Source of the DNA: Escherichia phage BF17 | Strand: one strand, 5' to 3' | Length of the DNA: 64,000 nucleotides | Sequence record: MW822008.1 | Shown here: positions 729 through 1,232 of the stretch, in pieces | Layout: every line of letters starts with the position of its first letter | How positions within the stretch are numbered: the first letter of the stretch is position 1 | Notes under the pieces: generated by a model | What the model was told of the DNA's origin: nothing | The model's database searches: none | What the model saw: the letters and a program-made list of their open reading frames with translations, nothing else | Position numbers and translations under genes: made by a program

Positions 729-1232
729 ATGAAATCTATTATTGCCAATAACGAAATCACCGCAAAAACTGTTCGTCTAGTTACGGAAGGTAAAAGTGAA
801 GTCATGGCAATCTCTAAAGCACTTGCTTTAGCAGAAAATGAAGGTCTGGATTTGGTGGTTATTGGAGCAGGTGATGAACCTGCTGTTAAAATCACTAATC
901 TGAACAAATTCAAATACGAATTGAAACAGGCTGAAAAAGCCTCTCTTAAGAAACAGCGTCAAAACACTGTTAGTACTAAAGAGATTCAATTCAACTTCGG
1001 GACTCAAGAGCATGATTTGCTTATTAAAGCGAAAAGTGCAGGTAAGTTCCTAGAAGAAGGTAAGCAAGTACACATTGTAATGAAAACCACAGGTCGCGGA
1101 ACAAACGCAACTGTTATCCAAAACAACGTTGATGCAATGGAGTCATTCGTTAGTCGTTTGGGTAACGTAACGTATGTCCAGAAAGTTGAATTCCAGGGTA
1201 AGAAGGTAACCTGTACTGTCAAAGTAAAATAA
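729..1232 (+). CDS. infC: translation initiation factor IF-3 homolog
   Basis: By-eye alignment to bacterial IF3 over both domains: NxEI-A-xVRL, EGLDLV, GKFxYE, KEIxF, FLEEGK. Confidence 0.6.

Follow-up and report, generated by a model that had tools for sequence, protein, structure and literature searches.

An IF3 homologue with an altered start-codon loop in a putative early transcription unit of Rak2-like Escherichia phages

What could a bacteriophage gain from a translation initiation factor of its own? This question is raised by a 64,000-nucleotide stretch of DNA, hereafter the window, from Escherichia phage BF17 (record MW822008.1), a Rak2-like jumbo myovirus and relative of Asteriusvirus. 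Near its beginning, a short open reading frame (ORF) on the + strand encodes a protein resembling the bacterial initiation factor IF3. This section will show that this protein is a two-domain IF3 homologue, maintained by selection throughout a phage lineage, and that the loop by which IF3 inspects the start codon is altered in it. These properties, combined with the organization of the locus, point to a factor that would be produced early in infection and would act on the ribosomes of the host.

The initial annotation of this locus had proposed, from an alignment made by eye, a 167-residue IF3 homologue starting with ATG rather than with the AUU codon of bacterial infC. The ORF was found at the exact position given there, and the ATG is also kept in phages 121Q, RaK2, GAP32 and CBB. 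The homology extends over both domains, as had been claimed. The profiles Pfam IF3_N (PF05198; 57.6 bits for a gathering score of 26.9, aa 7-71, profile positions 2-69 of 70), Pfam IF3_C (PF00707; 45.8 bits for 34.8, aa 82-165, profile positions 2-84 of 86) and NCBIfam TIGR00168, the full-length infC equivalog (100 bits for a cut-off of 60, E = 1.2e-28), are all matched above their curated cut-offs. PHROG 9787, the family of Rak2-like phage IF3s, is matched by residues 1-167 over 168 profile positions (E = 2.8e-66). When the sequences of the PDB were searched with HMMER, the top match was E. coli IF3 (8jsg_A, E = 6.2e-16, query residues 7-124), and all five blocks of the alignment made by eye recur in it. 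An AlphaFold2 model built on 21 sequences (mean pLDDT 82.3) displays a beta-beta-alpha-beta-beta N domain, a long linker helix and a beta-alpha-beta-alpha-beta-beta C domain. Far from being incompatible with the IF3 fold, it resembles the ribosome-bound factor: Foldseek aligns it to the 30S-bound IF3 5lmn_X with TM scores of 0.73/0.72, and the single domains superpose at 1.9 Å on 1tig, 2.0 Å on 6o6d and 2.3 Å on 1tif (rmsd). Because profile searches, structure prediction and fold comparison all agree, there is hardly any doubt that the ORF encodes a two-domain IF3 homologue.

As a discovery the gene is not new, being annotated and described already. Over its first 6 kb, the window shows 99.6% identity with Escherichia phage fEgEco12, whose genome measures 375 kb; the figure is 97-99.5% for several further coliphages and about 84.5% for 121Q, PBECO4 and their relatives. 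The window is a further isolate, or a near-identical strain, of the fEgEco12-type lineage. At the protein level, the window IF3 is 100% identical to fEgEco12 g413, whose record is labelled 'translation initiation factor IF3', and to its WPEC3 counterpart; identity amounts to 89% with 121Q and PBECO4, 68% with RaK2 and 50-58% with GAP32, CBB, BF and XbC2. In a phage collection of 50,697 records, 92 gave tblastn matches to IF3, and most Rak2-like records already carry the label. The annotated genes (fEgEco12 g413, 121Q gp47, RaK2 ORF153, GAP32_313, CBB_318 and Sharanji WNN14575) are the same gene as that of the window, in the same syntenic slot throughout and with no material difference. The paper describing CBB mentions IF3 homologues as 'also being identified in GAP32, 121Q, PBECO4, and Rak2' and proposes that the phage protein simply assists the formation of initiation complexes (PMC5259590). 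Its exact role in phages cannot be stated according to the Sharanji paper (PMC11895373), and a review of jumbo phages includes it in its listing (PMC7824862). In their survey of huge phages, Al-Shayeb et al. (2020, Nature) counted IF1 and IF3 among the genes possibly intercepting host translation (PMC7162821). What is added here is the definition of a presumably early transcription unit, of a lineage-specific loss of the RFRGR(E) core and of a recurrent cassette associating IF3 with Clp components, and in part with bS21 and Hsp20.

The surroundings of the gene are those of a phage, with a Dda helicase, structural genes and a topoisomerase II nearby, and no thrS-infC-rpmI-rplT operon was seen around it. 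The order Dda helicase, structural gene, 64-aa ORF, IF3, ClpS-like gene, KTSC gene, structural gene is kept in 121Q, RaK2, GAP32, CBB and XbC2, as well as in metagenomic relatives whose IF3 is 49%, 42% and 38% identical to that of the window, and orthologues occupy this IF3 slot in at least six genera. The gene is under strong purifying selection, with a dN/dS of 0.07 at a dS of 0.78 in the comparison with 121Q. A recent capture from the host was considered and rejected on two grounds: identity to E. coli IF3 is limited to 29-31%, and the nearest bacterial homologues reach only about 36-43% identity, and this over a portion of the protein. Among the 1.84 billion representative proteins searched, only five reached an E value of 1e-30 or better. 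The genomic context was checked for two of the top matches, and both lie in the phage IF3 slot; a true bacterial homologue from the same search (P0027) lies in a thrS-infC-rpmI-rplT context. IF3 is an old, vertically inherited component of the Rak2-like phage lineage, whose clade boundaries, drawn from a neighbour-joining tree based on Kimura distances with no bootstrap, are approximate. As a side observation, a public protein library contains a 1611-aa protein (P0122), 14 separate stretches of which match the C-domain segment of the query (aa 79-119), which suggests a long succession of IF3_C-like repeats.

A distinctive property of this IF3 resides in its C domain. The window protein shares with E. 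coli IF3, as seen in 8jsg and in complexes of the 5lmn type, its two domains, a basic helical linker, and the residues Y75 and K110. It differs by the lack of the first ~9 N-terminal residues and of the C-terminal KKKQ tail, by a deletion of two residues in the N-domain hairpin, and by KTTGRG in place of RFRGRE, followed by an insertion of three residues just past the loop. To evaluate these differences, 25 members of the clade were aligned with 138 other IF3s. Nearly every position conserved in the family is kept in the window protein. The counterpart of Y75 is a tyrosine in 24 of the 25 clade members and a phenylalanine in the remaining one, and K100, corresponding to E. coli K110, is invariant across all 25. 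Both residues matter in E. coli: Y75N is the infC362 start-codon fidelity mutation, Y75 being tied to the dynamics of the linker, and K110L abolishes binding to the 30S subunit (PMC7145577). The conserved RFRGR motif, on the other hand, is absent: the window has KTTGR, then a G for the E, so that F130, R131 and E134 are all replaced and only G132 and R133 are kept. Of the 127 IF3s that lie outside a 50-sequence clade uniting the Rak2-like proteins with their sister group, 115 (91%) carry R or K at position 131 and 119 carry F, L, Y or M at position 130. Position 131 is also R or K in all 32 phage IF3s belonging to the ClpX cassettes described below, but no full-length protein of the Rak2-like core clade is basic at this position.

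R131 is in contact with the start codon (PMC11775629). In E. coli, R131P boosts initiation with non-AUG codons, with leaderless mRNAs and with initiator tRNAs carrying altered G-C pairs, and is a mutant distinct from infC362; the exchange of the motif for the mitochondrial KKGK relaxes AUG/GUG discrimination; and mycoplasma IF3s have P, F or Y in place of R131 (PMC11775629). Because the contacting loop is changed to KTTGRG and published mutants of this motif shift selectivity, the window IF3 probably inspects the start codon and the initiator tRNA differently from, and probably less strictly than, the host factor. The initial annotation had likewise raised the possibility that a phage IF3 affects the choice of start codons or leaders, and the remodelled loop speaks in its favour. 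The canonical arginine contacting the start codon is likewise lost in mammalian mitochondrial IF-3mt (KKGK), in mycoplasma IF3 and in E. coli IF3-R131P, three systems in which its loss is accompanied by a relaxed discrimination of non-AUG starts, leaderless mRNAs or unconventional initiator tRNAs (PMC11775629). Unlike these variants, the window protein combines small or polar residues at both 130 and 131 with a glycine at 134, and it has no terminal extensions; the mRNAs of the phage itself are AUG- and Shine-Dalgarno-dependent. The likeness would be one of function, by analogy, rather than of common descent.

The organization of the locus provides a second line of argument (Table 1). The consensus sigma-70-type promoter announced by the initial annotation matches the consensus at 12 of 12 positions and ranks first among the sites of the initial 8 kb. 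Its -35 box overlaps the TGA stop codon of the upstream 64-aa ORF, and transcription is predicted to start near 691. In an alignment of the window with 121Q, RaK2, GAP32 and CBB, which represents five genera, the conserved elements are the -35 box (TGCTTGAC), the -10 box, the GGAG and the ATG; the spacer and the leader diverge. This organization departs from that of bacterial infC, with its AUU start and its thrS-infC-rpmI-rplT operon, as the window gene has an ATG and a promoter of its own. Within the window, promoters matching at least 11 of 12 positions number 40 on the + strand, 12 of them perfect, and none on the - strand, for an expectation of 2.3 ± 1.3 per strand. In the aligned region of fEgEco12, an annotated start codon follows many of these sites at a distance of 32-50 nt, and a class of early promoters used by the host polymerase has likewise been predicted for CBB (PMC5259590). 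Near-consensus promoters cluster between ~23 and 63 kb, among short ORFs of unassigned function and tRNA genes, a stretch that looks like an early region. A further promoter-like site (460-488, + strand, TTGACA-17-TATGAT, 11/12) was observed upstream; the ATG of the 64-aa ORF shares bases with its -35 box (TTGACATG), and the site would fire inside this ORF (465-659, + strand).

Downstream, the ClpS-like gene begins 13 nt past the IF3 stop codon and is followed by an intrinsic terminator. The hairpin of this terminator has a folding energy of -21.6 kcal/mol (z = -5.3), which none of 200 shuffled sequences equalled, and equivalent hairpins are found in 121Q, RaK2, GAP32 and CBB (z from -4.9 to -6.8). 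Promoter, IF3, ClpS-like gene and terminator would therefore form one transcription unit, and the type of the promoter suggests that this unit is expressed early. The terminator itself may have more than one function. Its loop holds GATAAATA, which is late-promoter-like and similar to ATAAATA, the T4-like motif of late promoters described in CBB (PMC5259590), and its 3' arm holds the GGAG Shine-Dalgarno sequence of the KTSC gene. ATAAATA occurs nine times on the + strand and never on the - strand in 50 kb, one copy preceding a virion structural gene (8382) by 39 nt. The element may combine early termination with late initiation of transcription, and possibly masks the KTSC Shine-Dalgarno sequence.

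Table 1. Coordinates of the features discussed for the IF3 locus (positions in the window, or amino acids where indicated).
Feature	Position	Strand	Description
Sigma-70-type promoter	656-684	+	TTGACA (656-661), 17-nt spacer, TATAAT (679-684)
GGAG Shine-Dalgarno of the IF3 gene	715-718	+	10 nt before the ATG; unchanged across the five aligned genera
IF3 homologue	729-1232	+	ATG start, 167 aa
IF3 domain layout	N domain ~aa 7-71; helical linker aa 58-78; C domain aa 82-165		
Tyr63 codon	915-917	+	Counterpart of E. coli IF3 Tyr75 (linker), by alignment
K119-T-T-G-R-G124 codons	1083-1100	+	Alignment counterpart of E. coli 129-RFRGRE-134
ClpS-like adaptor gene	1246-1791	+	181 aa; PHROG 15940, weak Pfam ClpS match
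Intrinsic terminator	1805-1862	+	Hairpin and U-run; closes the putative IF3/ClpS-like unit
KTSC-domain protein gene	1866-2411	+	Pfam KTSC, 51.9 bits for a cut-off of 25

On the basis of these elements, the following course of events can be proposed. The sigma-70 RNA polymerase of the host most likely transcribes the gene early, from its own consensus promoter, and the resulting bicistronic IF3/ClpS-like transcript would end at the conserved terminator. The protein is expected to bind host 30S subunits at the usual site of IF3, where it would supply or replace IF3 activity, that is, the separation of subunits and the control of initiation complexes, as host expression declines. Because its gene starts with ATG, it should escape the AUU-dependent autorepression acting on host infC. 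With its KTTGRG loop, its inspection of the start codon and of the initiator tRNA would probably be weaker than, or different from, that of host IF3. Identity, fold, conservation, purifying selection and the architecture of promoter, terminator and synteny directly support this proposal; the timing of expression, the binding to 30S subunits and the altered proofreading are steps that we infer. Taken as a whole, the chain leading from an early-expressed IF3 on the host 30S subunit to a supplied or replaced IF3 activity, probably with altered proofreading, is considered probable, with moderate confidence.

Several observations weigh against this proposal. The phage does not seem to need relaxed initiation, at least for genes with non-AUG starts or without leaders. 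Indeed, 92 of 95 annotated phage genes (97%) begin with ATG, 75 of the 95 have a Shine-Dalgarno match, no leaderless gene was seen among them, and start codons lie 32-50 nt past the -10 box, which corresponds to normal leaders. At the sites of R99, R131 and R147, basic residues of the C domain in E. coli, the window protein has non-basic ones, a loss that could weaken 30S binding, and compatibility with E. coli 30S subunits has to be assumed, because identity to E. coli IF3 is only 29-31%. The promoter is a prediction from its consensus match and its conservation. Finally, no biochemical, genetic or transcriptomic work on a phage IF3 was found in the literature searched, nor any transcriptomics of Rak2-like phages. 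A phage-borne initiator tRNA, another conceivable target of a modified inspection, was also considered. Six tRNA genes lie at 39991-44077 on the + strand (Ser-TGA, Ser-GCT, Met-CAT, Asn-GTT and two tandem Thr-TGT). The tRNA-Met(CAT), at 42523-42601, is not of the initiator type, because its G1-C72 end is paired and C-G pairs replace the G-C pairs at 29-31:39-41, and this candidate was rejected; the tRNA would be either an elongator Met or an Ile2-type (lysidine) species.

The canonical nature of the phage mRNAs is in line with the alternative that survives best, in which the phage protein is a plain booster. According to this explanation, a host-like IF3 would raise the dosage of the factor, the pool of free 30S subunits and recycling as infC expression falls, and the change in the loop would be neutral or compensated. 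It agrees with the retention of all the positions conserved family-wide, Y75 and K110 included, and with the simple assistance to initiation complexes suggested by the authors of the CBB paper (PMC5259590). It accounts less well for the fact that F130, R131 and E134 have disappeared from the whole lineage and stayed absent over deep divergence, the 32 other phage IF3s mentioned above being canonical (32/32), and for the published mutations and swaps of this motif that do alter selectivity (PMC11775629). This explanation is possible, even if it does not appear probable.

The same loop could also be read as the sign of a competitive inhibitor taking part in host shut-off, which would hold the IF3 site of the 30S subunit while being defective in the downstream steps, and would thereby block or bias host initiation. 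The early type of the promoter, the remodelled codon-inspection loop and the loss of three arginines important in E. coli IF3 are all compatible with such a function, and many early proteins of jumbo phages target ribosomes, according to the discussion of the Sharanji paper (PMC11895373). An inhibitor would nevertheless not require a full, well-conserved two-domain IF3, with both domains, the linker, Y75 and K110 under strong purifying selection, and the translation of the phage depends on the same 30S subunits. An inhibitory function is consequently regarded as very unlikely.

The neighbouring genes open a different perspective. In the ClpS-like protein, an additional beta-rich domain at the N terminus (aa 1-65) comes before the ClpS core (~aa 75-155). 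Its AlphaFold2 model (pLDDT 86.7) matches E. coli and Caulobacter ClpS in Foldseek with TM scores (target) of 0.88-0.91 and rmsd values of 1.2-2.1 Å. An L7/L12-like identity, which would have made the operon purely translational, was rejected because of these structural matches, the L12 match reaching only E = 0.08. In distant relatives (loci L012, L017, L037 and L074), short canonical ClpS proteins of 103-118 aa are observed. All Rak2-like loci share the order IF3-ClpS-KTSC. It is doubtful, however, that the KTSC gene is a third co-transcribed translation gene, given the conserved terminator in between and the late-promoter-like GATAAATA in its loop; it is probably expressed separately, and late. 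Its homologue is labelled as a structural protein in the records of CBB and XbC2, and the KTSC domain is predicted by a review to be RNA-binding.

The association of IF3 with Clp components is not restricted to the Rak2-like phages. The IF3 alignment was used to scan IMG/VR, where 107 viral contigs with a relative were detected, and the neighbours were typed in the best 80 of these 107 with small HMMs whose seed sequences were checked against Pfam. In 48 of the 80 loci, IF3 is colinear, on one strand, with a ClpX and/or ClpS neighbour. The arrangements are IF3-ClpS-KTSC, of the Rak2-like type (16 loci), ClpX-IF3-bS21-Hsp20-ClpS (16), ClpX-IF3 (8), IF3-S21-Hsp20-ClpS (3, some at contig ends), ClpX-IF3-Hsp20-ClpS (3) and ClpX-IF3-S21 (2); the other 32 loci have none of ClpX, S21, Hsp20 and ClpS as neighbours of IF3. 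Examples of cassettes can be seen in L037 (1728-4825), L074 (1728-4691), L012 (2483-4286) and L013 (1173-2995), further ones spanning the range L020-L099. Among named phages, Agrobacterium phage Atu_ph07 (gp001) has ClpX-IF3. The IF3s of the ClpX cassettes (Atu_ph07 gp001, L037, L074) thus adjoin Clp components on the same strand as does the window IF3, to which they are 30-40% identical; unlike it, they have a canonical [KR]F[RK]GRE in 32 of 32 cases. ClpX, bS21 and Hsp20 were not detectable within the 64-kb window, where the adjacency of IF3 and ClpS is alone present. Vibrio phage 2.275.O shows the intermediate order IF3-S21-ClpS-KTSC, and the layout of the window may be a reduced derivative of a ClpX-type cassette. 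No description of the ClpX-IF3-bS21-Hsp20-ClpS cassette was found in the literature searched, and the review of jumbo phages handles these genes separately, not as a cassette (PMC7824862). The bS21 of phages, together with the other translation genes of huge phages (PMC7162821), illustrates the same idea of a 30S initiation component supplied by the phage, even if bS21 is a different protein from IF3 and its role in phages is likewise only proposed.

Two readings of the linkage between IF3 and Clp can be considered, a common pathway and a mere coincidence of timing and descent. If it were functional, the phage IF3 could have a Clp- or chaperone-linked role, in ribosome rescue or recycling, in the release of assembly or hibernation factors from the 30S subunit, or as a partner or substrate of the ClpS-like protein. 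The frequency of the colinear cassettes in IMG/VR (48/80) favors this possibility, as do the ability of IF3 to release RbfA from the 30S subunit (PMC7145577) and the role in ribosome rescue suggested by Iyer et al. But adjacency under a conservative genome order may express shared timing or ancestry rather than a shared pathway, 32 of the 80 phage IF3 genes have no such neighbours, and the literature searched yielded no evidence of IF3 and Clp being linked, physically or functionally. Such a role in place of the proposed initiation activity therefore has little probability. A bolder combination would see in the window a proofreading-relaxed IF3, produced immediate-early with its ClpS-like adaptor, as the reduced vestige of an ancient ClpX-IF3-bS21-Hsp20-ClpS cassette of large phages, coupling the remodelling of the 30S initiation site to Clp proteolysis. 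This is speculative and rather improbable as a whole; if true, the phage IF3 could take over ribosomes while host factors are cleared.

The last alternative, in which the gene would be host contamination, a recent passenger or a decaying pseudogene, is effectively refuted: a few weak tblastn matches in small unannotated 'phage' records may be host DNA, but the window gene is embedded among phage genes of the type found on a 375-kb phage genome, its product is only ~30% identical to E. coli IF3, the bacterial infC context differs (L35-L20 follow IF3 in only 1 of the 80 viral loci), and its intact frame, its dN/dS and its syntenic orthologues across genera are those of a maintained gene.

The proposal of an early IF3 that supplies or replaces the activity of the host factor, probably with altered proofreading, gives this locus a particular interest. 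The phage protein is one of the few core initiation factors encoded by viruses. The Rak2-like IF3 belongs to easily cultured phages of E. coli, and its presumed target is the best-characterized bacterial translation system. Since the change in the loop is lineage-wide, it permits a precise comparison between the wild-type protein and a version in which RFRGRE is restored. More generally, the recurring linkage between IF3, Clp components and bS21 suggests that large phages may coordinate the takeover of translation with proteolysis.

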